A DNA stretch of 16,370 nt from a virus (taxonomy: Duplodnaviria > Heunggongvirae > Uroviricota > Caudoviricetes). Shown here in pieces: positions 1-15,591 of this stretch. The translations under genes and the position numbers were made by a program. The first letter of the stretch is position 1. The number at the start of each line of letters is the position of its first letter. Under the pieces are notes generated by a model that did not search any database, was not told the origin of the DNA, and saw only the letters and a program-made list of their open reading frames with translations. The stretch lies in IMG/VR virus record IMGVR_UViG_2724679059_000001. One strand, written 5' to 3'.

Positions 1-342
1 CTACATACGACTCTGCTGCTTCTCCGTATGTACACGTTTGACTATCTTATAAATCCATTGCAGCGTCAGATTATATTTCTTCGCTAATTCGGCGTAGTTG
101 CGCCCATCGCACTCGCTATAGATTTGGTAGTCACGCTCCGATGCTCGTCCGGAGATCCCCTTAGGGAAATAAATGCTTTGTCCGCCCCAGTTACGCATCA
201 TTCGGTCGGCAATGGCAAAACCCACATTTTCTGCCGATGAACTGTCGAGATTGATGCTTTCAATCAGAACTTGCGATGCATGAAAAGCCAGGTCGTTAAT
301 GATCTCCGGTGTCCGGGCCATCTCTTTTGATTTTCGTATCAT
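1..342 (-). CDS. Mor/C-family phage transcriptional activator (Mu middle-operon-regulator-like)
   Basis: Complete 113-aa ORF (ATG at 340-342, stop at 1-3) with a GGAG RBS 7 nt upstream on the - strand. C-terminal half (GGQSIYFPKG...DGRNYAELAKKYNLTLQWIYKIVKR) matches the conserved Mor/C helix-turn-helix region from memory. Divergent from the tail operon. Confidence 0.8.
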   Translation of the reverse strand: MIRKSKEMARTPEIINDLAFHASQVLIESINLDSSSAENVGFAIADRMMRNWGGQSIYFPKGISGRASERDYQIYSECDGRNYAELAKKYNLTLQWIYKIVKRVHTEKQQSRM

Positions 343-562
343 TTTTCATCTCCATATATCTTGCATCCTGAATAAGACCCGATGCGTGTAAAACCACGGA
401 TATACGCTAAGCAGTTGTCATTACTGCTACTCAATACATTCAACAAACAAATAAACAATCACCAGAAATATAAATTCTTAATATTAATGTACGCATAAAT
501 TCACTAAATAAATATATTGTTTGTGTTATGTTTCTTGTCAACAGGAGTATCATTTTACACGA

Positions 563-582
563 TACTGTATGCACATACAGTA
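563..582. promoter_or_regulatory. LexA (SOS) box, TACTGTATGCACATACAGTA
   Basis: Perfect CTGT-N8-ACAG palindrome with TA flanks; matches 16 of 20 positions of the enterobacterial consensus taCTGTatatatatACAGta, including all the most conserved positions. Lies in the divergent intergenic region. A TATTAT -10-like hexamer (581-586) overlaps it on +, and a TTGACA -35 (541-536) lies nearby on -. Confidence 0.7.
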
Positions 583-878
583 TTATTTTTACCTGTAGTG
601 TAAAAAGATCGTTTCCCTCACAGTCGCTGACTTTCTTAAACAAACTTTAAAAATCAAATAACTATCGACTATTCCTACGATCCACCATCATCTTTTCCCT
701 GCATAATGACGCGCTTATTCGCCAGGTCACCGTTTGCTCTTTAATTGCTGAGTCGATTTATTAGCGGGCATGTTCATTTATAGAGAATCTATTTTTTAAA
801 CTTATTTATTAAAGCTTTTTTCATTCTTCACTGGCGGGTTCTGACGACACTAAACGCTCACTTATCAGGAGATATCGT

Positions 879-1166
879 ATGAAAAAAGTCACTTTTCCCC
901 GGCTTTCCGGCTGGCTGGTCGCTTCCGTCGCGCTGTTTGTCGTGATCGGCTGGACCTCTTCAGCACAGATCCCGGTCGTCATTTATAAACTAAGCCTGGT
1001 TTCGCTTTCCGCGGTTCTGGGATACTGGCTCGATCGCAGTTTGTTCCCCTGGGCACGGCCTGACTCTTTTAGCCCCTGGAAGGAACCGCGTTGCTGCGCG
1101 GCGGCAATGATTCGCCGCGCCATCATCGTTGCCGCCGTCTGTCTTTCCGTCGCCTTAGGGCTATAG
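879..1166 (+). CDS. small membrane protein, candidate holin
   Basis: 95-aa ORF with AGGAG RBS 8 nt upstream. Two to three hydrophobic helices (LSGWLVASVALFVVIGW; LSLVSLSAVLGYWL; AIIVAAVCLSVALGL). Sits immediately upstream of, and overlaps, the lysin gene. Holin role is positional inference only. Confidence 0.5.
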   Translation: MKKVTFPRLSGWLVASVALFVVIGWTSSAQIPVVIYKLSLVSLSAVLGYWLDRSLFPWARPDSFSPWKEPRCCAAAMIRRAIIVAAVCLSVALGL

Positions 1167-1168
1167 TG

Positions 1169-1774
1169 ATGTGGCTGAAATATATCGCGTCTATGATTAT
1201 TTTCGTTCTTTTCCCGCTTAACGCCTCTGAACCGCCGCGAGCCTCTCTGGCATGGCGAAACGAACTAATTCGTACAGCTCGAGAAGTCTGGGGGCTGAAT
1301 GCCCCAGTGGCCGACTTTGCCGGGCAATTACACCAGGAGTCCGCCTGGCAGCCAATGGTACGTTCCCCCGTTGGCGCACAAGGTATGGCGCAATTTATGC
1401 CTGCTACTGCGACATGGATAAGCCAGTTGTATCCACAATTGCGTGAAAACAAACCGTATAACCCAACCTGGGCGATTCGCGCGCTGGTGCAATATGACCA
1501 GCATTTGTGGAAAAACATCTCTGCGCAAAATGACTGTCAGCGTATGGCGTTTACCCTAAGCGCCTATAACGGCGGTCAGGGGTGGGTTAACCGGGATAAA
1601 AAACTGGCTGCATCCAAAGGGTTAGATGCCACTCGCTGGTTTGGTCATGTCGAGCAAGTCAACGCCGGGCGCAGCGCCGCGAACTGGCGAGAAAATCGTC
1701 GCTATCCAAAGATGATTCTCTATCAACACGCTGCCCGCTATTTACTCTGGGGACAGGCAAGCTGTCTTCACTAA
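1169..1774 (+). CDS. lytic transglycosylase (SLT domain) endolysin with N-terminal signal peptide or signal-anchor
   Basis: SLT catalytic motifs read directly: HQESAWQP...SPVGAQGMAQFMPATA and AYNGGQG. Hydrophobic N-terminus MWLKYIASMIIFVLFPLNA. The longest ORF starts at TTG 1091 but overlaps the previous gene; ATG 1169 (or GTG 1166) overlapping the upstream stop is the more likely start. Confidence 0.85.
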   Translation: MWLKYIASMIIFVLFPLNASEPPRASLAWRNELIRTAREVWGLNAPVADFAGQLHQESAWQPMVRSPVGAQGMAQFMPATATWISQLYPQLRENKPYNPTWAIRALVQYDQHLWKNISAQNDCQRMAFTLSAYNGGQGWVNRDKKLAASKGLDATRWFGHVEQVNAGRSAANWRENRRYPKMILYQHAARYLLWGQASCLH

Positions 1775-1786
1775 TCAGAGGGGCCG

Positions 1787-2101
1787 ATGAAACTCAGTAT
1801 CGATTTTTGGGAAGTGATCTCCCTTATGCTTTCCTTCGTTGGATTAATGTTTGCTGCCGGAAAACTGCTGTTAGCGCAAATTGAAAAACGACTTAATGAG
1901 CGTTTTGAGTCTCTGGAAAATGCCCGCAGGGAATCAGAAACAAGTTGGTCGAAACTGGAAAGAGAGTTTCTTGAATTTCGTGCCGAGCTTCCGCTGCATT
2001 ATGTCCGCAGAGAAGATTATCTTCGTGGGCAAGCAGTATTAGAAGCAAAGCTGGATGCCTTATATAGCAAAATCGAGCTGTTACAACGTGGCAGTTATTA
2101 A
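1787..2101 (+). CDS. membrane-anchored coiled-coil protein, probable lysis accessory (i-spanin- or releasin-like)
   Basis: 104-aa ORF with GAGGGG RBS. N-terminal transmembrane segment (ISLMLSFVGLMFAAGKLLL) followed by a charged, heptad-like helical region. Last gene before a strong terminator. Confidence 0.5.
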   Translation: MKLSIDFWEVISLMLSFVGLMFAAGKLLLAQIEKRLNERFESLENARRESETSWSKLEREFLEFRAELPLHYVRREDYLRGQAVLEAKLDALYSKIELLQRGSY

Positions 2102-2107
2102 ATACAT

Positions 2108-2140
2108 CCCCACCTTTACGTAAGTGTGGGGATTTTTTAT
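2108..2140 (+). terminator. rho-independent terminator after the lysis cassette
   Basis: GC stem CCCCAC (2108-2113) pairing with GTGGGG (2126-2131), immediately followed by ATTTTTTAT, just after the stop at 2101. Confidence 0.7.
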
Positions 2141-2247
2141 AGCCATTCAATTTTTTCTCTAAATCACATTAAAAGATTCTTCACCTTCACTGCTTCATAA
2201 TACATCTCAACGATAACGAAGTGAGCGGTAATTAAGGTACACCTCAT

Positions 2248-2703
2248 ATGAAAATTTTATCTGCAATGAATTATGTCATGGTCAAATTACGTGATCGGCA
2301 TCCTGAAATGGATATATTTATTTCATCTACGGATGCCCAGAAATATATTCCACAGACACAACAAGTTGCAGTGATTATTAATTATAGCGGTTCTGTCTTT
2401 ACCACACCCGAAAGCAGTGATGCCATCGTGCAACAGCAAATACTCCGCTTAACCGCCACCGTTATTGTTGACAAAAATTGTGACGCGTTAAACGCACTTG
2501 ATTGCATACGCAGCGCATTGGGCGGCCTTCAGCTTCCTGATTGCGATCGTCTGCTTTGGCTTGAAAAAGAAATTAATACGGGTGAGAGCGGCGGTTTCTG
2601 CCGCTACATCCTGGAAATGGCGACCAGCTCGCTGTTTATCGCTGAACAGGAAAGCACGGATCTTCCCCTGCTTACGGAAGTTAACTACGAGGAAACTGAA
2701 TGA
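2248..2703 (+). CDS. phage tail-associated protein (Mu gp37-like, possible tail completion or terminator protein)
   Basis: 151-aa ORF, first gene of the tail block. Its stop overlaps the next start (ATGA at 2700-2703). Family assignment is from gene order and recollection, not a search. Confidence 0.5.
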   Translation: MKILSAMNYVMVKLRDRHPEMDIFISSTDAQKYIPQTQQVAVIINYSGSVFTTPESSDAIVQQQILRLTATVIVDKNCDALNALDCIRSALGGLQLPDCDRLLWLEKEINTGESGGFCRYILEMATSSLFIAEQESTDLPLLTEVNYEETE

Positions 2704-2897
2704 AATACATCTACAACGGCCCGGCAAGCGGCGTCACCCTTGCCGATGGACAAGAAATCTTATTGTGGCCGAACAGTGAAATTGATCTGCCAGAAGACAA
2801 CGAGTGGGTCATGACCATGATTGCCCGCAATCATCTGACTCCTGTCATCACTCAGGAAGAACAAAATAACGTAGAGGAAATTGTACATGGCAGCTAA
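2700..2897 (+). CDS. small conserved phage tail-module protein (Mu gp38-like)
   Basis: 65-aa ORF, translationally coupled on both sides (ATGA overlap upstream; overlaps the sheath start). Acidic protein. Function unknown. Confidence 0.5.
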   Translation: MKYIYNGPASGVTLADGQEILLWPNSEIDLPEDNEWVMTMIARNHLTPVITQEEQNNVEEIVHGS

Positions 2898-4311
2898 TTA
2901 CCTGCACGGTGTAGAAACCATTGAAATTGAAACCGGCCCGCGTCCGGTTAAAGCGGTAAAATCCGCCGTCATCGCTTTAATCGGTACGGCCCCCTGCGGT
3001 CCGGTAAATAAACCAACATTATGCCTTTCTGAAAGCGATGCTGCGCAGTTTGGCTCGACTCAGGCTAACTTTACGATCCCACAGGCACTGAAGGCGATTT
3101 ATGACCACGGTGCCGGTACGGTGGTGGTGATTAACGTGCTGGATCCGGCAAAACATGGCTCCAACATCAGCAATGAGAGTATCACTTTTGACGCTAACAA
3201 CCAGGCGAAGCTCGCTCACCGCAATGTGCGTAACGTGGTACTAAAGCCCTCTTCATCAAATTCATCAACCTTTAACACCGCAGCATTTAGCGTAGATGAA
3301 CAAACAGGCATAATTACCCGTAAAGGAGCCGACATTCCTCCTGGTGCGAAAGTTTGCGCCTATTATTCCTGGTGCGACCCTACAAAGGTCACCGCAGCCG
3401 ATATTATCGGTGCCGTAAATACCGCAGGCGACCGCACGGGGATGAAACTCCTTCAGGACACCTATAACCTGTACGGTTTCTACGCCAAAATCCTGCTTGC
3501 TCCCGTGTTTTGTACGCAAAAATCAGTAACTACTGAGCTGATTGCACAAGCGGAAAAACTCGGTGCGCTTACCTACATTGATGCTCCGATTGGGACGACA
3601 TTCCAGCAGGTATTGGCTGGACGCGGTTCGCAAGGGGCTATCAACTTCAATACCAGCTCTGATCGTGTGCGTTTATGTTACCCACACGTCAAAGTTTACG
3701 ATGGCATCACTAACCAGGAAGTTCTCGAACCACTCTCTTCGCGCGCTGCCGGGCTACGTGCCAAAGTAGACCTCGAAAAAGGTTTCTGGTGGAGCAACTC
3801 AAACCAGGAAATTCAGTGTATTACCGGTATTGAACGTTCGCTTTCTGCAATGATTGATGATCCACAAAGCGAAGTGAATCAGCTCAACGAAAACGGCATT
3901 ACCACTATTTTCAATAGTTACGGTTCTGGTCTGCGCTTGTGGGGCAACCGCACAGCGGCATGGCCTACCGTGACCCATATGCGTAACTTTGAAAACGTTC
4001 GCCGGACAGGCGATGTAATTAATGAGTCAATCCGTTATTTCAGTCAGCAGTATATTGATATGCCGATTAATCAGGCTCTTATTGACGCGCTGACCGAATC
4101 GGTAAATACCTGGGGCCGAAAACTGATTGCCGACGGCGCACTGCTTGGCTTTGAGTGCTGGTACGATCCGGCGCGAAATTCACCGGCTGAACTCAGCGCC
4201 GGGCATTTATTGCTTAGCTATAAATTCACCCCGCCGCCGCCGCTGGAACGTCTGACGTTTGAAACTGAAATTACTTCTGAATATTTAGTCTCTCTGGAGA
4301 GCAATAGCTAA
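2887..4311 (+). CDS. contractile tail sheath protein (P2 FI / Mu L-like)
   Basis: About 474 aa, the size and position expected for a myovirus sheath, immediately before the tube gene. GAGGAAA RBS before ATG 2887; the longest ORF begins at TTG 2881. Confidence 0.85.
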   Translation: MAANYLHGVETIEIETGPRPVKAVKSAVIALIGTAPCGPVNKPTLCLSESDAAQFGSTQANFTIPQALKAIYDHGAGTVVVINVLDPAKHGSNISNESITFDANNQAKLAHRNVRNVVLKPSSSNSSTFNTAAFSVDEQTGIITRKGADIPPGAKVCAYYSWCDPTKVTAADIIGAVNTAGDRTGMKLLQDTYNLYGFYAKILLAPVFCTQKSVTTELIAQAEKLGALTYIDAPIGTTFQQVLAGRGSQGAINFNTSSDRVRLCYPHVKVYDGITNQEVLEPLSSRAAGLRAKVDLEKGFWWSNSNQEIQCITGIERSLSAMIDDPQSEVNQLNENGITTIFNSYGSGLRLWGNRTAAWPTVTHMRNFENVRRTGDVINESIRYFSQQYIDMPINQALIDALTESVNTWGRKLIADGALLGFECWYDPARNSPAELSAGHLLLSYKFTPPPPLERLTFETEITSEYLVSLESNS

Positions 4312-4835
4312 TGGCTGGAAAAATTCAAATTAACCGTATTACCAACGCCAATATTTATCTCGATGGTAATAATCTTTTAGGTCGTGCAACCGAAATTAAA
4401 TTGCCGGATGTCAGTTTAATTATGCAAGAGCATAAAGCACTGGGTATGGTCGGTAAAATCGAACTCCCGGCTGGTTTCGATAAACTGGAGGGGGAAATTA
4501 AATGGAACTCCTTTTATCAGGACGTAATGCGTAAAACGGCAAACCCGTGGCAGGCAGTAGCATTACAGTGCCGCTCCAGTATTGATTGCTATAACTCCCA
4601 GGGGAAAGCGAATCAATTAGCGTTAGTGACACATTTAACCGTGATGTTTAAAAAGAATCCCTTGGGCACATTTAAACAGAATGAAAACCCGGAATTCAGC
4701 AGCGCCTTTGGTTGTACTTATATTAAACAAGTGGTCGATGGTGAAACGCTGCTTGAACTTGATTATATGGCGAATATTTTTCGGGTTAACGGCGTGGATC
4801 AATTAAGTACCTATCGCAATAACATCGGTGGCTAA
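4311..4835 (+). CDS. tail tube protein (P2 FII / Mu M-like)
   Basis: 174-aa ORF; start overlaps the sheath stop (TAATG). Size and position match tube proteins. Confidence 0.8.
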   Translation: MAGKIQINRITNANIYLDGNNLLGRATEIKLPDVSLIMQEHKALGMVGKIELPAGFDKLEGEIKWNSFYQDVMRKTANPWQAVALQCRSSIDCYNSQGKANQLALVTHLTVMFKKNPLGTFKQNENPEFSSAFGCTYIKQVVDGETLLELDYMANIFRVNGVDQLSTYRNNIGG

Positions 4836-4839
4836 ATTA

Positions 4840-4859
4840 TTCGGGGCTACGGCCCCGAA
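4840..4859 (+). other. intra-operon RNA stem-loop after the tube gene
   Basis: Perfect 8-bp stem TTCGGGGC / GCCCCGAA with a 4-nt loop, directly after the tube stop; no U-tract follows. Possible mRNA stabiliser or partial attenuator after the abundant sheath and tube genes. Confidence 0.4.
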
Positions 4860-4885
4860 CTTCGCAACATAAATAAGGATACAAA

Positions 4886-5203
4886 ATGAAAGAGCATTAT
4901 ATCTTACAGTTCCCATTTACGTCGGCAGCAGGAAATACTATCGACTCGCTGCAATTACGTCGCCTGAAAGTAAAAGATATGCGCAACGCGCGCCGGATCA
5001 GCGAAAAACCCGAAGAGTGGGATGAACCGCTAATGGCGGCGATGACCGGACTGGTGCCAGAAGATTTAGCTGAAATGGATTTGCTGGATTACCAGGCATT
5101 GCAGAAACGATTTCAATCCATGCTTACCGTGGTTACAGAATCCTCCCCAGCTATGGCAGGCAATGGCGCTACTGGCGAGATGGTTTCGCTTTCCACCCAG
5201 TGA
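4886..5203 (+). CDS. tail assembly chaperone (P2 gpE-like)
   Basis: 105-aa acidic protein between the tube and tape-measure genes, the canonical chaperone position. AAGGA RBS. Confidence 0.6.
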   Translation: MKEHYILQFPFTSAAGNTIDSLQLRRLKVKDMRNARRISEKPEEWDEPLMAAMTGLVPEDLAEMDLLDYQALQKRFQSMLTVVTESSPAMAGNGATGEMVSLSTQ

Positions 5204-5392
5204 GATAGACGCGCTCACCATAGATGACTTTAGCAACTGGCTGGATGAAGCCAGCGACCAAATAAAGATCGAATATGGCTCGCAGACCTGATGTCTGCGA
5301 GTTCTTCAAAGCCCGCCAGGTTTATTTCTTCCCAGCCCCTTTTTTAGAAAAATAACCAGTGGGCCATTATCAATAATTAAAGAGAAACAATT

Positions 5393-6274
5393 TTGGCCAA
5401 CGATATTATTACCCAGCTTCAGGCGCGTAATGAGACGTTGACGCAGGCAATAGCCCGTTACGGCTCACTCAACGCCAGAACTTTGTTAGCTCTCTCTTCT
5501 CAGCAAGCGACAGTAATCAAACTAACGCAGCAACTTGCCGATTCTGCTCTCCGCCTGGAGGAAAATAGCCGGAACCGCGCTGATCTAATGGAGAAAACCC
5601 AAACATTTGCCGGGCAATTTAGCAAGGTATTCAATGTTGAAGCCCCCGACTGGAAGTTGCCATATGAGTTCCAGGACAACATGGTCAATATGGCGACCAA
5701 AGGTGGGATGAATGCTACAACCCGCGAGACGCTCAGCCTTAATCTGCGCGACTGGAGCATGGATTTTAACCAGCAGCAGACCACCTTACAGAACGCAGCC
5801 CAAACGCTGATCGAAGGCAATTTGTCGTCGATGCAGGATCTCAACCGTTATATGCCGGAGATCGCCAAAGCTGCCACCGCCACGCGCGAAAGTGCTGAAA
5901 CGTGGGCGAATGCCGCGCTCGCGACTCATGATCGATTGAATATTGCCCCGGAAAATTTCCACGCCACGCAAAACATGATGTATGGCATTAGCAAAAGCGG
6001 TGGGCCTGCCGTTGCCGAACAAACGCAGTGGATAGAGAAATTTGCAGGTAAAACCGGCGCTCAGGGTCTGGAAGGTATGGCTGAACTGACCGCCATCATG
6101 CAGATCGCCATGAAAAACGGGGCCAGCGCCAGTGCGGCGGCGGAGAATTTCGACCACTTTCTGCAAACCACCTTTTCGAAAAAACCGATAACTGGTTCGC
6201 CAGCCAGGGCGTTGATCTGCAAGGCTCTCTGCTTGAGCATCAGCAAAACGGTATGGGTGTTAGCGAAGCCATGA
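5393..6274 (+). CDS. tail tape measure protein, N-terminal part (gene apparently frameshifted)
   Basis: Ala/Gln-rich helical protein in the tape-measure position, starting at TTG 5393. The frame ends at 6274 while the continuation runs in another frame from an A6 tract at 6179-6184. Confidence 0.65.
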   Translation: MANDIITQLQARNETLTQAIARYGSLNARTLLALSSQQATVIKLTQQLADSALRLEENSRNRADLMEKTQTFAGQFSKVFNVEAPDWKLPYEFQDNMVNMATKGGMNATTRETLSLNLRDWSMDFNQQQTTLQNAAQTLIEGNLSSMQDLNRYMPEIAKAATATRESAETWANAALATHDRLNIAPENFHATQNMMYGISKSGGPAVAEQTQWIEKFAGKTGAQGLEGMAELTAIMQIAMKNGASASAAAENFDHFLQTTFSKKPITGSPARALICKALCLSISKTVWVLAKP

Positions 6275-7767
6275 CTCATATCGTGCAAATGCAGCTTGAG
6301 AAGATGAATCCGGCGATCCTCGGCACCTTCAAACGCACTATGCAGATTGAAGATTTATCTGCTCGCAGCAATGCGCTGCAATCGATGGTGACGCAATTTA
6401 ATCTGGGCGAAATGTTCGGCGATGCGCAAACTGTGGAATTCCTGGCACCTATGCTGGCGAATATGGAGGAATATCGCCAGTTAAAAGCCTCTGCCATGCA
6501 AGCCAGCAGCAAGAATCTGATTGATGCCGACTTTTCTGCGCAAATGGCCTCGCCCATTGAACAGACTAAAGCGTTACAGCTGGCGTTAAATGATTTATGG
6601 CTCAGCATTGGCTTGCAATTAATGCCGCTGATTGGCGAGCTGGCACAAAGCCTTACGCCGGTTGTTCGCCAGTTCAGCGCCTGGCTACGTGAGCACCCGG
6701 CACTGGTGCAAAACATTGCGAAAATCGTCGGGGCGATTTGGCTGTTTAACGGCGCGCTGAATGTTTTAAAACTGGGCGCGAACTTCATCGCCTCGCCGTT
6801 TATTCGTCTGGTCGATATCTTCCTGAAAGTCAGGGCAAGTCTGGCACTCACAGGCGGGGCAAGTAAGATGCTATCAGCGGTTAAGTCATTGGGTGGCGGT
6901 GCAAAATGGCTAACGCAACTGCTTGGTCGTGGCCTGATTGGCGCACTGAAACAGGCAGGTCAGACCGTCTTCTGGTTGGGTAGGGTTTTATTGATGAATC
7001 CCATTGGTCTGGTCATCACTGCGATTGCGGGCGCTGCTTATCTGATTTATCGCAACTGGGAGCCTATCTCCAGGTTCTTTTCTACCATCTGGCAACGTAT
7101 CACCACGGCCTTTGACGGCGGCATTGCAGAAATTTGTCGGTTAATTCTCGACTGGTCGCCGCTGGAGTTGTTCTATAGCGCCTTTTCCAGTGTGATGAAT
7201 TGGTTTGGTGTTGAAATGCCTGCGAGTTTTAGCGAGTTCGGCAGCAATCTTCTGGCTAGCCTGGCCGACGGCATAATGAATGCCTTCCCCGCTCTGAAAG
7301 GCATTATTGATCAGGTCAAAAACGTCATCCCAGACTGGCTAAAAACCACGATGGGTATTAGTACAGAAGGATCGGCTACAGCTATTACAAGCACGACTAA
7401 TACCGCATCCGTCTCCCCCGCGAGCGTTGTTCCAGGCGTTGCCGGTGCGATTTTAACGCCTCCGGTGGGGAAACAACTCGCGCCATCCAGTAAAACGACA
7501 ACGCCGCCATCGGCACCTGCGGCAAAAAATACAGCCGCCAAACCCGCATTGGCCTCTTTACCTGGTAAATCCGTAACCAAACCGGCGACGCTACCTTCCC
7601 GTTCCTCTGGAAAAGTTCAGGTGAATTTTTCGCCACAGATTACCGTGCAGGGTAACGGACAAAACACCACTAAAGAGATTCAGAACGTGTTGACGATGAG
7701 TAAACGCGAACTTGAAAGAATGATTAACGACGTAATGGCGCAACAACAGCGCCGGGGGTATGCCTGA
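6253..7767 (+). CDS. tail tape measure protein, C-terminal part
   Basis: Frame open from 6085; contains hydrophobic, glycine-containing segments and a Thr/Pro/Ala-rich tail typical of tape measure proteins. Ends with TGATG overlap onto the next gene. Adding one A at 6179-6184 fuses it to the upstream ORF. Confidence 0.65.
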   Translation: MGVSEAMTHIVQMQLEKMNPAILGTFKRTMQIEDLSARSNALQSMVTQFNLGEMFGDAQTVEFLAPMLANMEEYRQLKASAMQASSKNLIDADFSAQMASPIEQTKALQLALNDLWLSIGLQLMPLIGELAQSLTPVVRQFSAWLREHPALVQNIAKIVGAIWLFNGALNVLKLGANFIASPFIRLVDIFLKVRASLALTGGASKMLSAVKSLGGGAKWLTQLLGRGLIGALKQAGQTVFWLGRVLLMNPIGLVITAIAGAAYLIYRNWEPISRFFSTIWQRITTAFDGGIAEICRLILDWSPLELFYSAFSSVMNWFGVEMPASFSEFGSNLLASLADGIMNAFPALKGIIDQVKNVIPDWLKTTMGISTEGSATAITSTTNTASVSPASVVPGVAGAILTPPVGKQLAPSSKTTTPPSAPAAKNTAAKPALASLPGKSVTKPATLPSRSSGKVQVNFSPQITVQGNGQNTTKEIQNVLTMSKRELERMINDVMAQQQRRGYA

Positions 7768-8720
7768 TGTATGCCGTTTTAGGAGAGATTGAATTTAAGG
7801 TTGTCGCATTCTGGGACGGCTTTAAAAGCACAATGGGCGTGGATTACGCCACACATGCCCGTATAGAAGGCAAACCCGGTGTGCAGTTTATTGGCGATAA
7901 GCTGGATATGCTGGCGCTGGAATTTTCCCTGCACAGCCAGTTTTGCCAGCCCACAACAGAGCTTAATCGACTGCGTGAAGCCATGCTTGCTCACAAGGCG
8001 ATGGCACTGGTATTTGGCAATGGCGATTATCGCGGCTGGTTTGTAATTACGGAGCTAACCGCCACCCACCAGCACACCGATCCCTGGGGCAATGTGATTG
8101 CCCAAAACGGAACGATGTCGCTCCAGGAGTACACCGGCGATCCTAAAAATCCACTTTTACCTCCGGCGATTACCACCCAGGAGCCTAACATTGAGGAAAA
8201 GGCGAGCGATTTTCCCGACATGGTGGAGTCCTGGTTTGATCAGATATTAAACGCCATCGAAGAAGGTATGCGTAAGGCCAAAGAGATGCTGGATGAACTG
8301 ACACAAGCCATTGAAGATATTAAAAAAACGGTGGCAAAAGTGAAAGCAATGATTAAAGAGGCCAAAGTGTTAAAAGAAAAGTGTGAAAAGATAATTACGT
8401 CATTGAAAAAGACAATCGACGCCATCGAAACCCTGTTTAAACAGCCAATGGATCTGCAAACGCTGGCAGGACTCCCAAAAGCGTTGTCGGCGCAGATTAA
8501 AACTTTACTGGGTAACATGCCAGGTATCCGGGACTGCGCCAATGACGCCAGTACACTGGTTGACCATGCTCAGGCGCTTTTCGACGACATTACCAGCGAC
8601 ATCGCCGAAGCGACGTTTGATAAAGCCGCAACGTTGGTTGATCAGGCACGAACAACGGTACAACAAACCACTCCCACAGTGAGCCAGCTTGCTGCCGCGA
8701 CCATTACGAGGATCTGGTGA
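7767..8720 (+). CDS. tail protein with P2 gpU-like N-terminal domain and Lys/Glu-rich helical C-terminal extension
   Basis: 317-aa ORF between the tape-measure and gpX/gpD genes, the gpU position in P2-type order. C-terminal ~170 aa is K/E-rich and encoded by a visibly AT-rich stretch (about 8220-8480). Confidence 0.55.
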   Translation: MYAVLGEIEFKVVAFWDGFKSTMGVDYATHARIEGKPGVQFIGDKLDMLALEFSLHSQFCQPTTELNRLREAMLAHKAMALVFGNGDYRGWFVITELTATHQHTDPWGNVIAQNGTMSLQEYTGDPKNPLLPPAITTQEPNIEEKASDFPDMVESWFDQILNAIEEGMRKAKEMLDELTQAIEDIKKTVAKVKAMIKEAKVLKEKCEKIITSLKKTIDAIETLFKQPMDLQTLAGLPKALSAQIKTLLGNMPGIRDCANDASTLVDHAQALFDDITSDIAEATFDKAATLVDQARTTVQQTTPTVSQLAAATITRIW

Positions 8721-8929
8721 TGCGATACCTTGAACATATCACCACCGACGGCGAACGCTGGGATAATCTGGCATGGCATTACTACGGTGATGCGCTGGCT
8801 TATGAACGCATAATCGTCGCCAATCCACATGTCGCCATTTACCCGGTACTGCCTTCCGGTATTCAGCTCATTATTCCGGTCATTTCCGTCAATAAAACCT
8901 TATCGGAGATCCCACCATGGCTGAGATAA
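8720..8929 (+). CDS. tail protein X (P2 gpX-like, LysM-like)
   Basis: About 70 aa with the YYGD...ANP...LP.G pattern typical of gpX; overlaps the flanking genes. Confidence 0.7.
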   Translation: MRYLEHITTDGERWDNLAWHYYGDALAYERIIVANPHVAIYPVLPSGIQLIIPVISVNKTLSEIPPWLR

Positions 8930-9957
8930 GCGTAACTGGTGGCGTCTTTGCCACACTCACGCCCATTTTTACCCTCTGGTATGGGCATAAAGATATCACT
9001 TATGACATCACACCCTATGTCACCAGCATCAGTTACCACGACAGCATCAAAAACGAGTCAGATACCATCGCGATTACACTGGATGACACCGATGGACGCT
9101 GGATAAAAGAGTGGTATCCCGGCAAAGGCGATACGCTGGCGCTGCATATGGGTTATCAGGGGGAAAAGCTGCTCGATTGTGGTCAGTATATTATTGATAA
9201 AATTGATATTTCAGCGCCACCTTCTACGGTAAATATTGATGGCATCGCCACTTCCGTCAATCAGGCGCTGCGTACCCGTAACAGCCAGGGCTTTGAAGAA
9301 ACGACGCTTTCGGCTATCGCCAGCCGTATCGCCCAAACGCACGGTCTGAAACTGGTGGGCAAAATCGAGCCGCTCACCATCGACCGGGTAACGCAGTATG
9401 GTGAAACCGATGTCGGATTTCTCAAGCGCCTGGCCAGCGAATATGGCTATGCGGTAAAGGTGACCACCAAAGAACTGATTTTTTCGCATTTACCCACGCT
9501 GCGCTGCCTGGCGCCGGTAAAAACGATCGACCGCAAAGACGTTTCGCATTTCACCTTCAAAGATACCATTAACCGTATCTACAAAAATGCCACCGTACAG
9601 CATCAAAATAGTAAGAAAAAAGAACTGGTTATCTACACCCACGACAGCCAGCAAAAACCGTCTACCCGTGGAGTCGGCACCAGTGCCGACACGCTAAAAC
9701 TGAACAGTCGGGCGCCGGACGTTGGCGCGGCACAGGCAAAGGCCAACGCCGCGCTCGACAGCCACAACGAATATCAACAAACCGGAACGCTCAGGATGAT
9801 GGGCTGCCCGGAACTGACGGCGGGCAATAAAATTGAACTGACCGATTTTGGCGTGCTTTCCGGTCAGTGGCTGATTGATAAATCGACTCACAGTTTTGTG
9901 CGCAGCGGCTATACCACTGAAATCGACGTGTCACGCGGGCCAGCGACCAGCCAGTAA
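8917..9957 (+). CDS. baseplate hub / tail protein D (P2 gpD-like)
   Basis: 346-aa ORF directly after the gpX-like gene, the conserved X-D order. Size and position fit the hub protein. Confidence 0.8.
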   Translation: MAEISVTGGVFATLTPIFTLWYGHKDITYDITPYVTSISYHDSIKNESDTIAITLDDTDGRWIKEWYPGKGDTLALHMGYQGEKLLDCGQYIIDKIDISAPPSTVNIDGIATSVNQALRTRNSQGFEETTLSAIASRIAQTHGLKLVGKIEPLTIDRVTQYGETDVGFLKRLASEYGYAVKVTTKELIFSHLPTLRCLAPVKTIDRKDVSHFTFKDTINRIYKNATVQHQNSKKKELVIYTHDSQQKPSTRGVGTSADTLKLNSRAPDVGAAQAKANAALDSHNEYQQTGTLRMMGCPELTAGNKIELTDFGVLSGQWLIDKSTHSFVRSGYTTEIDVSRGPATSQ

Positions 9958-9966
9958 GGAGGAAAT

Positions 9967-10668
9967 ATGAAAGGAGTAACCCGTCAAACGGGGATTATCA
10001 GCGATATTGACGAAACCAGCGTTCGGGTGCGAGTCACGCTTCCGGAGTGTGACAATCTGAAGAGCAACTGGCTTGCGGTACTTCAACGCAATTCCCAGGA
10101 CAATAAAGACTACTGGCTACCGGATATGGGCGAGCAAGTGGAAGTTCTGCTGGACAATAACGGTGAAGATGGCGTGGTGCTGGGCGCAGTTTATTCTACG
10201 GTTGACACCGCGCCTGTGGCCTCGCGCGATAAACGTTACGTCCAGTTTTCTGATGGCGCAGCGTTTGAATATGACCGCAGCACCCACCAGCTGACGATTA
10301 ACGGCGGTATCGAGAAAATCGTGATTGAGGTTATCGACAGTACCCGCCTGACATCACCCAACGTTGAGATTAAAGCCCAACAGGTCACCGTGACTTCCGA
10401 TACCGTCGATATTAAAGCGACCGATGTCAGCATCGACGCCACTAAGGTCGATGTTAAAGCGGCAGCAGTGACGGTAGATGCGCCCATGAGCACCTTTACT
10501 GGCAATGTCACGGTAATGAAAAAACTCACCTGGCTTGGCGGGATGGCAGGAAGTGGAGGCATCGGTAACGCCGCCACGATAACTGGCAATGTCAACGTGA
10601 TCGGCAACGTTCAGGCCAGCGGCGCATTGCAGGACAGCGGTGGCAACTCCAACCACCATACACACTGA
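9967..10668 (+). CDS. baseplate central spike (P2 gpV / T4 gp5-like)
   Basis: Perfect AAGGAGG RBS. N-terminal OB-like region followed by beta-helix repeats (VTVTSDTVDIKATDVSIDATKVDVKAAAVTVDAP) and a His-rich C-terminus (NSNHHTH), consistent with a metal-binding spike apex. Confidence 0.85.
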   Translation: MKGVTRQTGIISDIDETSVRVRVTLPECDNLKSNWLAVLQRNSQDNKDYWLPDMGEQVEVLLDNNGEDGVVLGAVYSTVDTAPVASRDKRYVQFSDGAAFEYDRSTHQLTINGGIEKIVIEVIDSTRLTSPNVEIKAQQVTVTSDTVDIKATDVSIDATKVDVKAAAVTVDAPMSTFTGNVTVMKKLTWLGGMAGSGGIGNAATITGNVNVIGNVQASGALQDSGGNSNHHTH

Positions 10669-10673
10669 CGTTT

Positions 10674-10703
10674 AACCCGCCTGATGGCGGGTTTTCTCTT
10701 TTT
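10674..10703 (+). terminator. rho-independent terminator inside the tail cluster, between spike and wedge genes
   Basis: Stem AACCCGCC (10674-10681) / GGCGGGTT (10686-10693) with loop TGAT, followed by the T-rich run TTCTCTTTTT, 6 nt after the spike stop. Confidence 0.6.
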
Positions 10704-10766
10704 AATCAATCAGTTTTCTAAATCGCTTTAATATCGCCACAGCCCGTTCAGGGCGAAAATACCCTC

Positions 10767-11126
10767 ATGAACACAAAAACACGACCCTCAACGCTGCACT
10801 GGCAACCGGCCTTGCAGCGGCCTGAAGAATACGTCTGCGGACTGGATGATATTCACCAGGCAATACACATCATTCTGCGCACACCGCGCGGCAGTGATCC
10901 CCACAGACCGCTGTTTGGCAGCAACTTGTGGCACTACATCGATTACCCCATCGAGCGGGCAATTCCGCATGTGGTACGGGAGTCGGTGGAAGCCATCCGC
11001 CAGTGGGAGCCGCGCTGTCGGTTGCTGAAGGTGACACCAGTAATCGACGGCGAACATCTGACGTTACGTGTGCAATGGCGCGCCGCTGACGGCGTTATCA
11101 ACTCAACGGAGGTGTTATGGCGATAG
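10767..11126 (+). CDS. baseplate wedge protein (GPW / gp25 family)
   Basis: 119-aa ORF with gp25-like motifs (ILRTPRGSDPHRPLFGSNL...WEPR). Confidence 0.85.
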   Translation: MNTKTRPSTLHWQPALQRPEEYVCGLDDIHQAIHIILRTPRGSDPHRPLFGSNLWHYIDYPIERAIPHVVRESVEAIRQWEPRCRLLKVTPVIDGEHLTLRVQWRAADGVINSTEVLWR

Positions 11127-12232
11127 CCGAACCCAATTTTATTGACCGCGATCCTGCGCAAATTACCAGTGAGATGATTGCGCAATACGAAGATGCCAGC
11201 GGTAAAAAACTCTATCCGGCACAGGCTGAGCGGTTGCTCATCGACCTGTTTGCCTATCGTGAAAACCTTGTACGCATCGCCATTCAGGAAGCGGCGAAAC
11301 AGAACCTGGTCGCGTATTCCCGCGCGCCAATGCTGGATTATTTAGGGGAGTTGGTGGGCGTTCACCGTTTGCCTGCGCAGCCGGCAAAAACGACGTTGCA
11401 GTTTTCGGTCGTCAGCGCGTATACCAGCAATATCCTGATTCCCCAGGGAACGCGGGCCAGTGCCTCTGATAGCGTGATGTTCGCCACCGATGAAGATGTT
11501 CTGCTTCCGGCCAGGAGTTTGCATATCGCCGTTCCTGCCACCAGCCTCGCAGCAGGTGAACAGGGTAACGGCTGGCAGCCTGCACAAATTAGCGCACTGG
11601 TCGACAGGATTGGTCATTATGACATCAACGTAACCAACCTGACTGCGTCAACGGGCGGCTGCGGTGAAGAGAGCGATGACGCATTGCGCCAGCGTATCCA
11701 ACTGGCACCAGAAAGCTTTAGTAATGCGGGCAGCTATGGTGCCTACCGCTTTCATACGCTTTCTGTTAGCCAGTCGATTATTGACGTTGCAGTACTGGGG
11801 CCGGACGAGGGATTGCCAGAAGGCTGCGTGGAGATCTACCCGCTAACTCTGAACGGACTGCCGGGAATAGAACTGCTCGCGCAAATTGAACAGGAGGTTA
11901 GCAAGGAGAAAAAACGTCCGCTGACCGACAAAGTGAGTGCGAAATGCGCTCTTCGAGTGCCATATGAGATCCGTGCGCAGCTAACGCTGTTTACCACCGC
12001 CGATCAGGAGACAACGCTGGCTGCAGCGCGTAAAGCGATTAGCCTCTGGACGCAACAGCGGCAGAAACATCTGGGGCAGGACATTGTGCCAAACCAGATA
12101 ATCAAAGTGTTACAGGTCGATGGCGTCTATGACGTTGCGCTGAATATGCCTACAAAACGTATTTTGCAGGCGCATGAGTGGGCGGAATGCACCGCAATAG
12201 ACGTCACGATTGCCGGAGTCAGCGATGGATAA
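11117..12232 (+). CDS. baseplate protein J (P2 gpJ / T4 gp6-like)
   Basis: 371-aa ORF in the W-J-I order; overlaps both neighbours. Confidence 0.85.
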   Translation: MAIAEPNFIDRDPAQITSEMIAQYEDASGKKLYPAQAERLLIDLFAYRENLVRIAIQEAAKQNLVAYSRAPMLDYLGELVGVHRLPAQPAKTTLQFSVVSAYTSNILIPQGTRASASDSVMFATDEDVLLPARSLHIAVPATSLAAGEQGNGWQPAQISALVDRIGHYDINVTNLTASTGGCGEESDDALRQRIQLAPESFSNAGSYGAYRFHTLSVSQSIIDVAVLGPDEGLPEGCVEIYPLTLNGLPGIELLAQIEQEVSKEKKRPLTDKVSAKCALRVPYEIRAQLTLFTTADQETTLAAARKAISLWTQQRQKHLGQDIVPNQIIKVLQVDGVYDVALNMPTKRILQAHEWAECTAIDVTIAGVSDG

Positions 12233-12857
12233 ATTGCTGCCACCGCCGCCGCTTGCCAGCGATGAGCGTTTTTCGATTCTGGCAAATATCGCCGCCGAGC
12301 GTTTTGCCCAACTCGATCTGACGGCGTTGATGGTTTATCTGATCGACCAGGTTGATGCTTCGGCATTACCAGCCCTTGCAGAACAATTTCACGTTCAGGG
12401 GCTGGAAGGTTGGTTATTTACCACCGATGAGCGGGAGAAACGCGAGTTAATTAAACAAGCCATTGAACTGCATAAATATAAAGGAACAATTTGGGCGGTG
12501 CGGCGGGTGCTGGAAATACTCTCATTACCAGGAACTATTTCAGAATGGTTTGAATATGGGGGAAGGGCTTATTTTTTTAAGGTGGATATAGCGCTGGTGG
12601 ATAAAGGCCTGGATGAAAACCTTTTCAATGATTTGGTAGAACTCATTCATGAATATAAAAACACACGTTCAAAACTGGAAGCATTAATCGTCTGGATCAT
12701 TAACCAAAGTGCTATTCCTGTTATTGGCTGTGCACTTTATGGTGGTGAACTGACGACGGTTTTACCTTTCCAGATACGGGAAGTACAGCACAACACATCG
12801 ATTTATTACGGAACAGGGCAATGGAGCCTTGAAATTACATCTATTTACCCGGAGTAA
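12225..12857 (+). CDS. tail protein I (P2 gpI-like)
   Basis: N-terminal LLPPPPLASDERFSILANIAAERF and a KGT motif match the gpI family from memory. ATG 12225 overlaps the J stop; the longest ORF starts at TTG 12210. Confidence 0.8.
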   Translation: MDKLLPPPPLASDERFSILANIAAERFAQLDLTALMVYLIDQVDASALPALAEQFHVQGLEGWLFTTDEREKRELIKQAIELHKYKGTIWAVRRVLEILSLPGTISEWFEYGGRAYFFKVDIALVDKGLDENLFNDLVELIHEYKNTRSKLEALIVWIINQSAIPVIGCALYGGELTTVLPFQIREVQHNTSIYYGTGQWSLEITSIYPE

Positions 12858-12859
12858 TT

Positions 12860-14518
12860 ATGGACAATGAGTTTTATACTCTACTCACCGACAGGGGAAT
12901 GGCAAAAATTGCCAATGCTCTGGCGGATAAAAAACAGCTTCATCTACAAAAAATGGCTGTTGGTGACAGCGGAGGACAATATTATGAACCCACCGTCAGC
13001 CAAACTAAATTACGCCATGAAGTATGGCGCGGTGATTTAAATACATTAACAGTTGCACCCAATAACCCTAACTGGTTAATTGCGGAACTCGTGCTGCCCG
13101 AAAATATCGGCGGCTGGTATGTACGTGAAGTCGGCGTTTTTGATACCGATGGTGAACTCATTGCTATCGGTAAATTCCCGGAGTCGTATAAACCACTATT
13201 ACCCGGCGGCAGCGGTAAGCAAGTTTGCATTCGCCTGATTATGGAAGTTTCCAACACGACTGCGGTAACACTCACCGTTGACCCCAGTATTGTACTGGCA
13301 ACACGGGATTATGTTGATTCACAACTGGATGAACATGAGCGTTCGACTAATCATCCTGATGCTACGTTAACGCAAAAAGGCTTTACACAGTTGAGTAACG
13401 CCACTGACAGTGATGACGAAACCAAAGCGGCTACGCCAAAAGCGGTGAAAGCGGCAATGATTGAGGCTCGAAATCATCGTCATACCTGGAGTCAGATTAC
13501 TGATATACCAGATGGTACGCTGACACAAAAAGGGATTGTGAAGCTTAATAACGCGACAGACAGCAACAGTACGACGGAGGCGGCGACACCGAGCGCGGTG
13601 AAGGCGGCATATGACCTGGCGAATAGTAAGGCTGCGGGAAACCATACTCACCCATGGGGACAGATTACGGGTGTTCCAGACGGCACCCTGTCGCAAAAAG
13701 GGATTGTGAAGCTTAATAACGCGACGGATAGCAACAGTACGACGGAGGCGGCGACACCGAGCGCGGTGAAGGCGGCAATGGATAAGGCAAAAACTGCAGC
13801 TCCAGCTAATCATACCCACACTAGTTTTTATACTACAAATGGAACATTTATAGTTCCTGAGGGCGTAACAATATTATTTGTGGAAATTATGGGCGGCGGA
13901 GGTGGGGGGGCCGGAGGAGCACAATCATCACATTATGAAGCCTGCGGAGGTAATGCAGGAGAATTGATTGTTGATTACTTAAACGTGGCACCAGGCCAGC
14001 ATTTTTCAGTAAAGATCGGAGCTGGAGGTAATGGAGGTCCTTTTTGGAACAATCCACCTGTTTCACAAATAAAGTATTCGTATGATAAAACAGAGACAAC
14101 ACAAAAAAGCTTTGATGGTGGAGACTCTTCGTTTTCTAATCTAACTGCAAAAGGTGGCCATGGAGGATATAACATTTATCACTCTAACACTACGCAGCCT
14201 TATATAAAATTCAGTGACGATCCTAAAGGTACTCCACCAAATGCAATACCGTCATCTGCAGAATTTTATCCTGGAAAGAATGGTGAAAATTCTATATATG
14301 GAAAGGGAGGGGCTTCAGGTACTGTTATTACAGAAAACCTAAGTAATGGTGGAAAAAAAGCAGTAATGGCAAAGCCAACAGCAGCAACAGGTTATGGTTC
14401 TGGAGGAGCTGGGGGATCTTATTTACCTCCTTTTCAATATAAAAATAATGAGTTAACAAATTTAGGCAATACTAGCGGAACAAAAGGTGCCTCTGGCTTC
14501 GTAAAAATATCATGGTAA
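12860..14518 (+). CDS. tail fiber protein: P2 gpH / R-pyocin-fiber-like N-terminus, tandem fiber repeats, glycine-rich C-terminal receptor-binding domain
   Basis: N-terminal ~150 aa (LLTDRGMAKIANALA...MAVGDSGGQ...AELVLPENIGGWYVREVGVFDTDGELIAIGKFPESYKP...ATRDYVDSQL) matches the conserved baseplate-attachment domain of P2 gpH-type fibers. Three fiber repeats (TLTQKGIVKLNNATDS...AATPSAVKAA) follow, then an AT-rich Gly-rich C-terminus. Confidence 0.85.
   Translation: MDNEFYTLLTDRGMAKIANALADKKQLHLQKMAVGDSGGQYYEPTVSQTKLRHEVWRGDLNTLTVAPNNPNWLIAELVLPENIGGWYVREVGVFDTDGELIAIGKFPESYKPLLPGGSGKQVCIRLIMEVSNTTAVTLTVDPSIVLATRDYVDSQLDEHERSTNHPDATLTQKGFTQLSNATDSDDETKAATPKAVKAAMIEARNHRHTWSQITDIPDGTLTQKGIVKLNNATDSNSTTEAATPSAVKAAYDLANSKAAGNHTHPWGQITGVPDGTLSQKGIVKLNNATDSNSTTEAATPSAVKAAMDKAKTAAPANHTHTSFYTTNGTFIVPEGVTILFVEIMGGGGGGAGGAQSSHYEACGGNAGELIVDYLNVAPGQHFSVKIGAGGNGGPFWNNPPVSQIKYSYDKTETTQKSFDGGDSSFSNLTAKGGHGGYNIYHSNTTQPYIKFSDDPKGTPPNAIPSSAEFYPGKNGENSIYGKGGASGTVITENLSNGGKKAVMAKPTAATGYGSGGAGGSYLPPFQYKNNELTNLGNTSGTKGASGFVKISW
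13369..13790 (+). repeat. in-frame tandem repeat array inside the tail fiber gene (3 copies, about 168-bp period)
   Basis: 13526-13609 and 13694-13777 are 82/84 nt identical; a more diverged copy lies at about 13369-13450. Each encodes a T..KG(I/F)..L.NATDS...AATP.AVKAA unit followed by an H-x-H motif. Confidence 0.75.
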
Positions 14519-14524
14519 TTAAAA

Positions 14525-15139
14525 ATGACAAAATATGCTTGTTTTGATCCTGAAACATTTATCGTTCTGGACTGGATCGATACAGAACACTACAACTATC
14601 CTAAAGTAGAACATTTAGTTGAAATAACTGATCAGCAATGGCAGACATATGCGAAAGCTAATATCCCAATTTGGATTAACTGTGAAGATTTATCCTTTAT
14701 CTCTACGCCACCACCAGATAGATTTCACAAACTAAAAAAAGGAGAATGGATAGTTGATACAGATTCAATGCTTAAATTTATTTCAGAAATAAAAGCGGAT
14801 ATAATAAGAAGAATAAAATCCAAACGGGATTACGTCACAACCGATTACATCATCATCAACAACCATCACTTCCACAGTGATACAAACAGCCGTATCCAAC
14901 AGCTCTCACTCACAAAAATGGGAGCGGAGAAAAAAATCCCTCCAGGGTTAATGTGGAAAACTAAAAATAACGGTCTGATCGAGTTAACCAACGAGATCGC
15001 CGCCCAGTTTGAATCGGTAACAATGGATCACGATATGCGCCTGTTCGCCAATGCCCAGCACCATATCGCGGCGGTGGAAGCTCTGGACGATATTCAGGCG
15101 GTGCTCGACTACGATTATTCAACAGGCTGGCAAGCATGA
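14525..15139 (+). CDS. tail fiber assembly protein (P2 gpG / Mu U-like chaperone)
   Basis: 204-aa ORF immediately after the fiber. The C-terminal half (FANAQHHIAAVEALDDIQAVLDYDYSTGW) resembles the conserved Tfa region; the N-terminal half is AT-rich like the fiber tip. Confidence 0.8.
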   Translation: MTKYACFDPETFIVLDWIDTEHYNYPKVEHLVEITDQQWQTYAKANIPIWINCEDLSFISTPPPDRFHKLKKGEWIVDTDSMLKFISEIKADIIRRIKSKRDYVTTDYIIINNHHFHSDTNSRIQQLSLTKMGAEKKIPPGLMWKTKNNGLIELTNEIAAQFESVTMDHDMRLFANAQHHIAAVEALDDIQAVLDYDYSTGWQA

Positions 15140-15591
15140 GTAAAACCACTGTCTGGCTCGCTTGTTATAAGGGCCGAACAGAGCACCGTGGTATTGCCCG
15201 ACTGGCTGACTGGCTTACCCGTAAAATCACGCGCGGTAGTTATTCCCACTGTGAATTAGCCGTTAAGCATGGTGAAAAGAGTTACCTTTGTTACTCTGCA
15301 TCACTGCGCGATCGCGGTGTACGCGGAAAGATAATGCCATTGCCAGCGGATAAGTGGGATATGCTGCCGCTCCAGGCCAGCCTTCAGGACGTGGAAGCGT
15401 TTTTCCATAAACATGATGGCAAAAAATATGATTGGCGCGGCGCGCTTGGAATTATTACCGGTAATAAAGAACAGCGTGAACGCCTGTTTTGCAGCGAATT
15501 TTGTGCCGAATTTCTGCAATTAAAGGAGAGTTGGCGCTATTCCCCAAACCACTTGTACGCTTTAGTCAGTAGCTGGCAATATCAGCCGTAA
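15136..15591 (+). CDS. hypothetical Cys/His-rich protein; cargo gene translationally coupled to the tail-fiber assembly gene
   Basis: 151-aa ORF whose ATG overlaps the Tfa stop (ATGA at 15136-15139). Contains SHCE and FCSEFC motifs; I do not recognise the family with confidence. Confidence 0.5.
   Translation: MSKTTVWLACYKGRTEHRGIARLADWLTRKITRGSYSHCELAVKHGEKSYLCYSASLRDRGVRGKIMPLPADKWDMLPLQASLQDVEAFFHKHDGKKYDWRGALGIITGNKEQRERLFCSEFCAEFLQLKESWRYSPNHLYALVSSWQYQP

Follow-up and report, generated by a model that had tools for sequence, protein, structure and literature searches.

A conserved LexA operator most likely switches on the Mor-type activator gene of a headless tail island at lysC in enterobacteria

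In colicin promoters, two overlapping LexA boxes lie just downstream of the -10 element and no intermediate activator takes part. The R- and F-pyocins of Pseudomonas aeruginosa are controlled in two steps, in which the SOS-cleavable repressor PrtR controls the activator gene prtN and PrtN boxes precede the lysis and tail operon; a PrtR1 has reportedly been described in P. protegens. Host LexA boxes also control genes that flip phage elements, as in the case of coliphage 186 tum, the Gifsy antirepressors and, reportedly, GIL01. In phage Mu, on the other hand, mor closes the early operon as its final gene and is not known to be under LexA control. The activator RdgB of Pectobacterium is said to have been recognized as Mor-like by Liu et al. 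in 1994. RdgA represses rdgB in this genus, and RdgB activates both pectin lyase and the Mu-type tailocin carotovoricin, whose gene cluster has no repressor of its own (PMC13566846, citing Liu 1994 and McEvoy 1992).

The locus described here is an Escherichia coli chromosomal island, and the circuit that we propose for it would share the logic of RdgA/RdgB, in that DNA damage would release a Mor-like activator and then lysis and tail functions. However, the sensor in Pectobacterium is the dedicated LexA/cI-like protein RdgA, whereas here a box for host LexA lies at the activator gene. The PrtR-PrtN system is similar in its two steps, from an SOS-cleavable repressor through an activator to lysis and tail genes, but in the island host LexA would be the repressor, and a Mor-family protein stands in place of PrtN as the activator. 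Both known circuits link a dedicated autocleavable repressor to the activator; since the island has no such gene, it is not a member of either. Colicin operons are comparable because LexA represses a suicidal bacteriocin-and-lysis module, though directly, and they carry tandem overlapping boxes on their toxin and lysis genes where the island has one box and an activator step. The 186 tum, Gifsy and GIL01 cases concern antirepressors or early promoters of complete phages, unlike the Mor-type late activator of a headless remnant. Likeness to the Mor/Pm system of Mu lies in an activator of family PF08765 and in a candidate promoter without a -35 but with a dyad upstream of the -10. The Mu dyad itself (AGCCGGTTAATCCGGCT) and the TAAAG...ATTAAAAG motif of the island are different sequences, and the Pm dyad was discarded as a model for that motif for lack of resemblance. 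BcepMu was also discarded as a regulatory parallel: the lysis genes are shared, but the layout differs and there is no mor at that position.

The window, by which we mean the whole stretch of 16,370 nucleotides analyzed, corresponds to an E. coli chromosomal island at lysC. Several E. coli chromosomes match its first 3 kb at 100% identity, and its first 13.8 kb share 99.86% identity with strain S10, where the island is flanked by lysC on one side and yjbD/rluF on the other. The island is carried by 197 of 5426 complete E. coli genomes and is chromosomal in every case. The gene mor (1..342, - strand) encodes a Mor-family transcription activator of 113 amino acids, assigned on the basis of the PF08765 Mor domain with its C-terminal HTH (E = 2e-37, profile positions 2-103 of 107) in agreement with RefSeq, and is the sole regulator gene of the island according to Pfam and RefSeq annotation. 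A lysis cassette follows on the + strand (879..2101), with genes for a holin (879-1166), an SLT lytic transglycosylase (1169-1774) and a membrane protein (1787-2101), as identified by Pfam (Holin_2-3 and SLT) and RefSeq. Next comes a contractile-tail block (2248..15591, + strand) encoding Gp37, sheath, tube, tape measure, P2-type baseplate, fibre and fibre assembly proteins (Pfam; RefSeq of S10). No head, packaging, replication, integrase/integration or repressor genes were found in the island by Pfam or in the RefSeq annotation of S10 from lysC to yjbD, and we therefore regard it as a headless tail-plus-lysis island that is tailocin-like by gene content. A full contractile tail plus lysis genes, with no capsid, packaging, replication or integration genes, is the gene set of R-type tailocins, although the tape-measure gene of the window is frameshifted by 1 nt. 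The literature yielded no report of bactericidal particles from the island.

The frameshift lies at 6172-6178 in the tape-measure gene (5393-7767), where the window has seven A and S10 has eight; this 1-nt deletion splits the 791-aa open reading frame into 5393-6274 and 6253-7767. It may be due to a sequencing error or to phase-variable slippage, or the gene may truly be a pseudogene; if the deletion is real, the tail cluster of this strain would be defective. Relative to S10, the fibre gene (12860-14518) is shortened by 168 nt (552 aa vs 608 aa). The difference maps to 13480-13780, within diverged tandem repeats of about 170 bp whose copies are 88-89% identical, and hence represents a fibre length polymorphism. 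At the right end of the island, an RlaP-type nucleotidyltransferase gene (15606-16370 and beyond, - strand; PF10127, E = 3.5e-96) is accompanied in S10 by a slipin-family gene, and both are cargo unrelated to tail function.

In Salmonella, the lysC site likewise holds an orthologous island whose genes follow the same order and which corresponds to STM4195-STM4219 of LT2. This region is the prophage remnant Def4, alias BTP6, considered ancestral to serovar Typhimurium (PMC5322425); unlike the E. coli island, it spans 20.4 kb and carries gtr cargo genes. Further orthologous lysC islands were found in Dryocola, Phytobacter, two Superficieibacter species, an Enterobacter-labelled lineage and several metagenome lineages. 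The sheath gene STM4213 (STM14_5066) was reported to be induced about 6-fold by indole (PMC3405474) and its protein was seen by proteomics during Dictyostelium infection (PMC5797601), which indicates that the Def4 remnant is expressed under some conditions. Our searches of the literature on STM4195-4219, STM14_50xx, lysC tailocins and Mor together with LexA found no description of the regulation of Def4 or of the E. coli island, or of the box analyzed below, and papers on dam mutants and on indole offered nothing usable as to whether the cluster is under SOS control. A paper on ExPEC endolysins and LexA was set aside since it deals with other prophage endolysins. Three short records of the phage collection from E. 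coli O157:H7 and S. Kentucky (OR845313, OR851449 and OR851641) share 74-78% identity with mor or with the lysis/Gp37-to-sheath region, so related tail clusters do occur among sequences deposited as phages. No intact phage with the control region of the island was found in that collection.

That control region is the 536-bp spacer between mor and the holin gene (343-878), which contains 34% G+C compared with 49% for the window. The preliminary description of this DNA had singled out an AT-rich region between activator and lysis genes and, within it, a perfect CTGT-N8-ACAG palindrome at 563-582 read as a near-consensus LexA box, and all of this was borne out. The palindrome, TACTGTATGCACATACAGTA, matches the 20-bp E. 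coli LexA consensus TACTGTATATATATACAGTA at 17 of 20 positions by mismatch count, with both 8-bp arms perfect and all three mismatches in the central four bases. It also agrees at 18 of 20 positions with the E. coli recA operator TACTGTATGAGCATACAGTA, taken from the E. coli genome record in the context cacTTGATACTGTATGAGCATACAGTATAATtgc. The pattern CTGT-N8-ACAG occurs once in the 16.4-kb window against a chance expectation of 0.11 (at least one occurrence in 22 of 200 shuffles), and TACTGTATGCACATACAGTA is the only 20-mer of the window within three mismatches of the consensus, a match reached in none of 200 shuffles. This single box lies 297 bp from the holin ATG, with a candidate activator-type promoter in between. 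No Rfam family matches the control region.

The position of the box is kept in nine of ten aligned lineages and in 16 IMG/VR loci, with substitutions that follow the LexA information profile, and every box-bearing locus with a readable flank is at lysC. Its distance upstream of mor is about 220-290 bp in Salmonella, Dryocola, Phytobacter, the two Superficieibacter species and several metagenome lineages. Among E. coli lineages it differs only in the central four bases (GCAC, GTAC, GTGC, ACAC, ACAT or ACGT). Elsewhere it reads TACTGTATATATATACAGTT in Salmonella Infantis, TACTGTATGCATATACAGTT in other Salmonella-type loci (the Salmonella boxes come from S. Infantis and IMG/VR loci), TACTGTATGCATATACAGTA in Phytobacter, TACTGTATGCATATACAGTC in Superficieibacter and TACTGTATAAATAAACAGTA in Dryocola. 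Overall, substitutions are confined to positions 9-12 and position 20, and CTGT and ACAG are invariant. Pairwise identity reaches 0.93 in the arms of the box and 0.93 in the adjacent 10-mer (551-560), as opposed to 0.63 in the central four bases and 0.53 in the spacer, which has many indels. Between box-bearing genera, dS of mor is at least 0.75, or else saturated or not computable; where it is computable, dN/dS is 0.02-0.07, which points to strong purifying selection on the activator. Invariant CTGT/ACAG arms around a free centre are the pattern predicted under selection for LexA binding. About 50 distant Mor loci, from Mu-like prophages of Pseudomonas, Pandoraea, Haemophilus and others, have no such box, which makes it specific to this enterobacterial island. 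Taken as sequence evidence, a box kept at one position in at least five genera amid saturated synonymous sites and a diverged spacer, its LexA-profile substitutions and the lack of an island repressor strongly support the direct SOS wiring that had been suggested for the locus.

A few loci depart from this pattern. In one lineage, L062 and L063 (2496-3000), with a Mor protein that bears the name Enterobacter hormaechei in the source record, the island at lysC looks intact and the Mor box before gp37 is kept; the LexA box and TTTACA are gone and block B (see below) is degenerate. The sequence CATTTTA is retained in L062 despite the loss of the box. Three deletion variants (L068, L071 and L072) retain lysC and an orphan or truncated mor, with the tail cluster replaced by a glycosyltransferase or hexapeptide-repeat acetyltransferase gene; in L071 and L072 the box has been replaced too, along with the tail cluster. 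The spacer is not in one piece in 11 of the 197 E. coli genomes, and the four that were tabulated all break at the box, at the same point. In E. coli AR_0013 (L070 1605-3510, equivalent to 569-576 of the window), the ISL3-family element ISEc53, which carries a ClbS/DfsB-family gene, sits at the exact centre of the box with an 8-bp target duplication (ATGTACAT), and disrupts the operator and both candidate promoters described next.

A sliding-window footprint of 343-878 revealed four peaks only: the mor ribosome-binding site (344-359), block A, formed by the 10-mer CATTTTACAC followed by the box (551-582), block B (791-816) and the holin ribosome-binding site (857-874). The conserved 10-mer (551..560) contains hexamers on both strands, a leftward -10 TAAAAT (557..552, - strand) that is conserved and reads TAAAGT in Dryocola, and a rightward -35 TTTACA (554-559, + strand). 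The box overlaps predicted core promoter elements of both strands and, on the leftward side, extends over the -35 and the spacer. On the - strand, the candidate mor promoter combines this -10, across a 17-bp spacer, with a -35 CTGTAT inside the box (580..575) that matches at two of six positions. Beyond it, a T-tract that reads AAAAATAA on the - strand (583..590) resembles the A-tract of an UP element and might act as one at about -38 to -45 of the candidate promoter; T584, T586, T587 and T588 are at least 90% conserved (alignment A2). On the + strand, TTTACA-16-TACAGT (554-581) is the sole sigma-70 match of a promoter scan of 300-920, and it is kept, with a spacing of 16 or 17, in all box-bearing lineages, though TACAGT would be conserved anyway because it is part of a LexA arm.

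Two further hexamers had been put forward in the preliminary description, and both are present but fare less well in the comparison. TATTAT indeed overlaps the right edge of the box on the + strand (581-586) but is not conserved in Salmonella or Superficieibacter; in E. coli it forms an ACGATA-16-TATTAT arrangement around the box that mirrors the TTGATA-box-TATAAT layout of recA. TTGACA does face mor on the - strand (541..536), 21 bp from the box, yet it is not conserved outside the Escherichia lineage, being replaced elsewhere by TTGATA or GTGAAG-like sequences. With TTGACA as the -35, the box would fall at about -53 to -72, a position unsuited to repression, and we rejected this hexamer as the gated -35 on account of its poor conservation and its distance from the box.

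Some 55 bp to the right of the box, block C (TTAAACAAACTTTAAAAATC, 636..655, + strand) is a third, weaker copy of the Mor-box-like dyad described below, conserved in Escherichia, Salmonella, Phytobacter and Dryocola but with no conserved -10. It may serve autoregulation by Mor. A leftward Mor-activated promoter running from block C through the box was considered and dropped, as its -10 is not conserved. The corresponding spot in Superficieibacter resembles a degenerate LexA half-site, CTGT-N8-AGAG. No conserved small open reading frame was found in the spacer, where conservation is poor and broken by indels. GATC (Dam) sites cluster to the right of the box, with three in Salmonella (L002 8600-8640), two in Phytobacter and one in E. 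coli (607-610), in a moderately conserved AAAAAGATCG...TCAC stretch. This cluster recalls the Dam-sensitive control of the mom gene of Mu.

Block B is the strongest footprint of the spacer (identity up to 1.0) and aligns with Mor-adjacent motifs of distant phages. It consists of a dyad-like A/T motif, TTTAAAsTTATTTATTAAAG, with a conserved GAyACT about 31 nt downstream. In the window this yields a candidate lysis promoter on the + strand (791..851) with the Mor-box-like TTTAAACTTATTTATTAAAG (795-814), no -35 and the -10-like GAyACT at 846-851. Just after the lysis cassette, a terminator-like hairpin with a U6 run (2106..2139, + strand; -15.5 kcal/mol, z = -3.87) has equivalents, hairpin plus T-run, in Salmonella, Phytobacter and Superficieibacter. 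Downstream of it lies a candidate tail promoter (2159..2201, + strand), in which the Mor box CTAAATCACATTAAAAGA (2159-2176) is separated by 19 nt from a -10 CATAAT (2196-2201), and in which no sigma-70 -35 was found. The arrangement of TTTTCTnTAAAGnnGATTAAAAGA, 19-20 nt and nAnAAT upstream of gp37 is conserved in seven enterobacterial lineages and is cleaner than block B. The hairpin and the conserved candidate promoter of Mor-box type before gp37 suggest that the lysis and tail genes are separate late transcription units. Motifs of the TTTTCTnTAAAGnnGATTAAAAGA type were also detected in distant loci, both where mor is followed by a holin gene (L040, L041) and where mor diverges from gp37-sheath (L019, L048), so that Mor-box-like promoters are conserved from phage loci of Gallionellaceae and Hydrogenophilales to Enterobacteriaceae. 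In the distant loci the predicted start follows the dyad centre by about 43 bp, the same geometry as that of Mor at the Pm promoter of Mu. By conservation and geometry, the dyads before gp37 (2159-2201) and the holin gene (791-851) are thus candidate Mor boxes.

On the basis of these features, we propose that the palindrome at 563-582 is a functional operator for the host LexA repressor. It would be the sole switch through which signals reach this domesticated island beside lysC, a headless tail cluster of Mu/BcepMu type. In the undamaged cell, a LexA dimer on the box would occlude the leftward mor promoter, composed of the UP-like A-tract (590..583), the weak -35 CTGTAT and the -10 TAAAAT (557..552), with a start near 545. 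Upon DNA damage, RecA-stimulated cleavage of LexA would free this promoter and let Mor accumulate. Mor would then act at two late promoters that lack a -35 and share the conserved dyad TnTAAAG-N3-6-ATTAAA(A)G, one (P_lys) before the holin-SLT lysis cassette (791-851) and the other (P_tail), past the terminator, before gp37-sheath-tube and the remaining tail block (2159-2201), and their activation would lead to tail assembly and lysis. We infer from the sequence comparison that LexA binds the box, that the leftward promoter and its start are placed as stated and that Mor acts at the late promoters. Two arguments tie the operator to mor. Apart from ribosome-binding sites, the only footprints of the spacer are the box block and block B, the latter beside the holin gene, which leaves mor with no other conserved candidate promoter. 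Given that mor needs a promoter, that block A is the only conserved element of this kind on its side and that the holin gene has block B, block A likely serves mor. Moreover, unregulated synthesis of Mor would leave the lysis promoters permanently on, so that mor must itself be controlled, and no operator-like element other than the box is present. The conserved LexA operator therefore most likely switches on the island activator gene mor. The poor -35, with two matches in six, and the rightward orientation of the scanner's sole sigma-70 match speak against a leftward promoter. On balance, we hold the whole model, in which LexA represses mor and Mor turns on two late promoters, to be probable.

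Published expression data from Salmonella bear on the first step. When treated and untreated S. Typhimurium 14028 were compared by RNA-seq, nalidixic acid raised STM14_5073 4.08-fold, from 49.0 to 204.5 TPM (PMC8072944, Dataset S1). By size, strand and position (348 nt, + strand, 4451529-4451876, next to lysC) this gene is the mor ortholog, the STM14 numbering being anchored by yjbD (STM14_5041), the sheath gene STM4213 (STM14_5066) and malE (STM14_5085). The response is modest beside those of recA (36-fold) and sulA (27-fold) in the same data set, and with 1091 genes up and a growth state that also differs between the samples (PMC8072944), the induction of mor is not specific proof of SOS control. 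A basal level of 49 TPM is also not low for a gene behind a near-consensus operator. The differential list contains none of STM14_5042 to STM14_5072, a range that covers the lysis and tail genes (PMC8072944, Dataset S1), and the second step of the cascade was therefore not observed in this data set. The silence of the late genes may mean that stronger damage is needed, that few cells respond and then lyse, or that the genes are silenced. The authors' table of 47 SOS genes omits STM14_5073 (PMC8072944), perhaps, if we may speculate, owing to a small annotated open reading frame between the box and mor. The locus names that we searched for were absent from the supplements of two Salmonella dRNA-seq papers.

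Which promoter is gated had been deemed undecidable from sequence. By sequence alone both strands are indeed possible, but the induction of mor in Salmonella and the footprint logic favour mor. The most serious rival is that the box gates both directions through overlapping, mutually exclusive divergent promoters, such that SOS would free mor together with a rightward leader transcript toward the lysis genes. We keep this reading, although we judge it rather unlikely, because the + strand carries the conserved promoter-like TTTACA-16-TACAGT, which is the only scanner match and is present in all box-bearing lineages, and because in E. coli ACGATA-16-TATTAT has the geometry of the recA promoter; in addition, the 10-mer CATTTTACAC holds both hexamers and is longer than either needs alone. 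On the other hand, the LexA arm accounts for the conservation of TACAGT, TATTAT is lost in Salmonella and Superficieibacter, the 290 nt downstream of the rightward promoter are poorly conserved and the holin ortholog is missing from the nalidixic-acid list. A broader scenario, to which we give similarly little credence, holds that the island is an anciently domesticated tailocin, vertically inherited at lysC since before the split of Escherichia, Salmonella, Phytobacter and their relatives, in which one host LexA operator, set between two overlapping and mutually exclusive divergent promoters, took over from the phage immunity system. Combined with block C as a Mor box near the mor promoter, it would act as a commitment switch that works in both directions and reinforces itself, and this would account for a response of mor to mild damage without expression of the lethal late genes.

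Less probable still, the box could gate the rightward promoter only, with LexA directly repressing a long-leader transcript of the holin and lysis (and tail) genes as in colicins, and with mor independent of it. The position of the best sigma-70 match on the + strand and the recA-like arrangement in E. coli would fit this reading. However, a strongly conserved candidate promoter of activator type already lies 30-90 bp upstream of the holin gene, and a single LexA promoter could not drive the whole island if, as predicted, the terminator and the second Mor-box promoter separate lysis from tail genes. A constitutive mor would, in turn, make the late promoters constitutive and would therefore be lethal, and it is mor and not the holin gene that responds to nalidixic acid in Salmonella. 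It is very unlikely that the palindrome is no working LexA site at all (a relic, a chance AT-rich palindrome, the operator of another protein or a preferred IS target), as might be argued from the lineage that lost the box yet keeps the island, from ISEc53 at its exact centre in some E. coli genomes and from its absence from the published Salmonella SOS list, since CTGT/ACAG arms that are invariant around a free centre, across genera with saturated neutral sites, are what LexA predicts, and neither another regulator gene in the island nor an Rfam match for the region was found.

That the box represents a new case of an already known kind of SOS wiring is well supported and, as such, unsurprising. 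If the model in which LexA controls mor is confirmed, it would extend the SOS regulon of enterobacteria by a conserved target capable of lysis, one that is missing from a published Salmonella SOS catalogue. It would also explain how a remnant with no repressor of its own, such as Def4 or the lysC island present in about 4% of E. coli, is silenced and then fired. Domestication could then be pictured simply, as the exchange of phage immunity for an operator of the host ahead of a Mor-type activator. Quinolones and other DNA-damaging antibiotics might in that case trigger lysis, the release of tail particles or the formation of vesicles in island-bearing strains.
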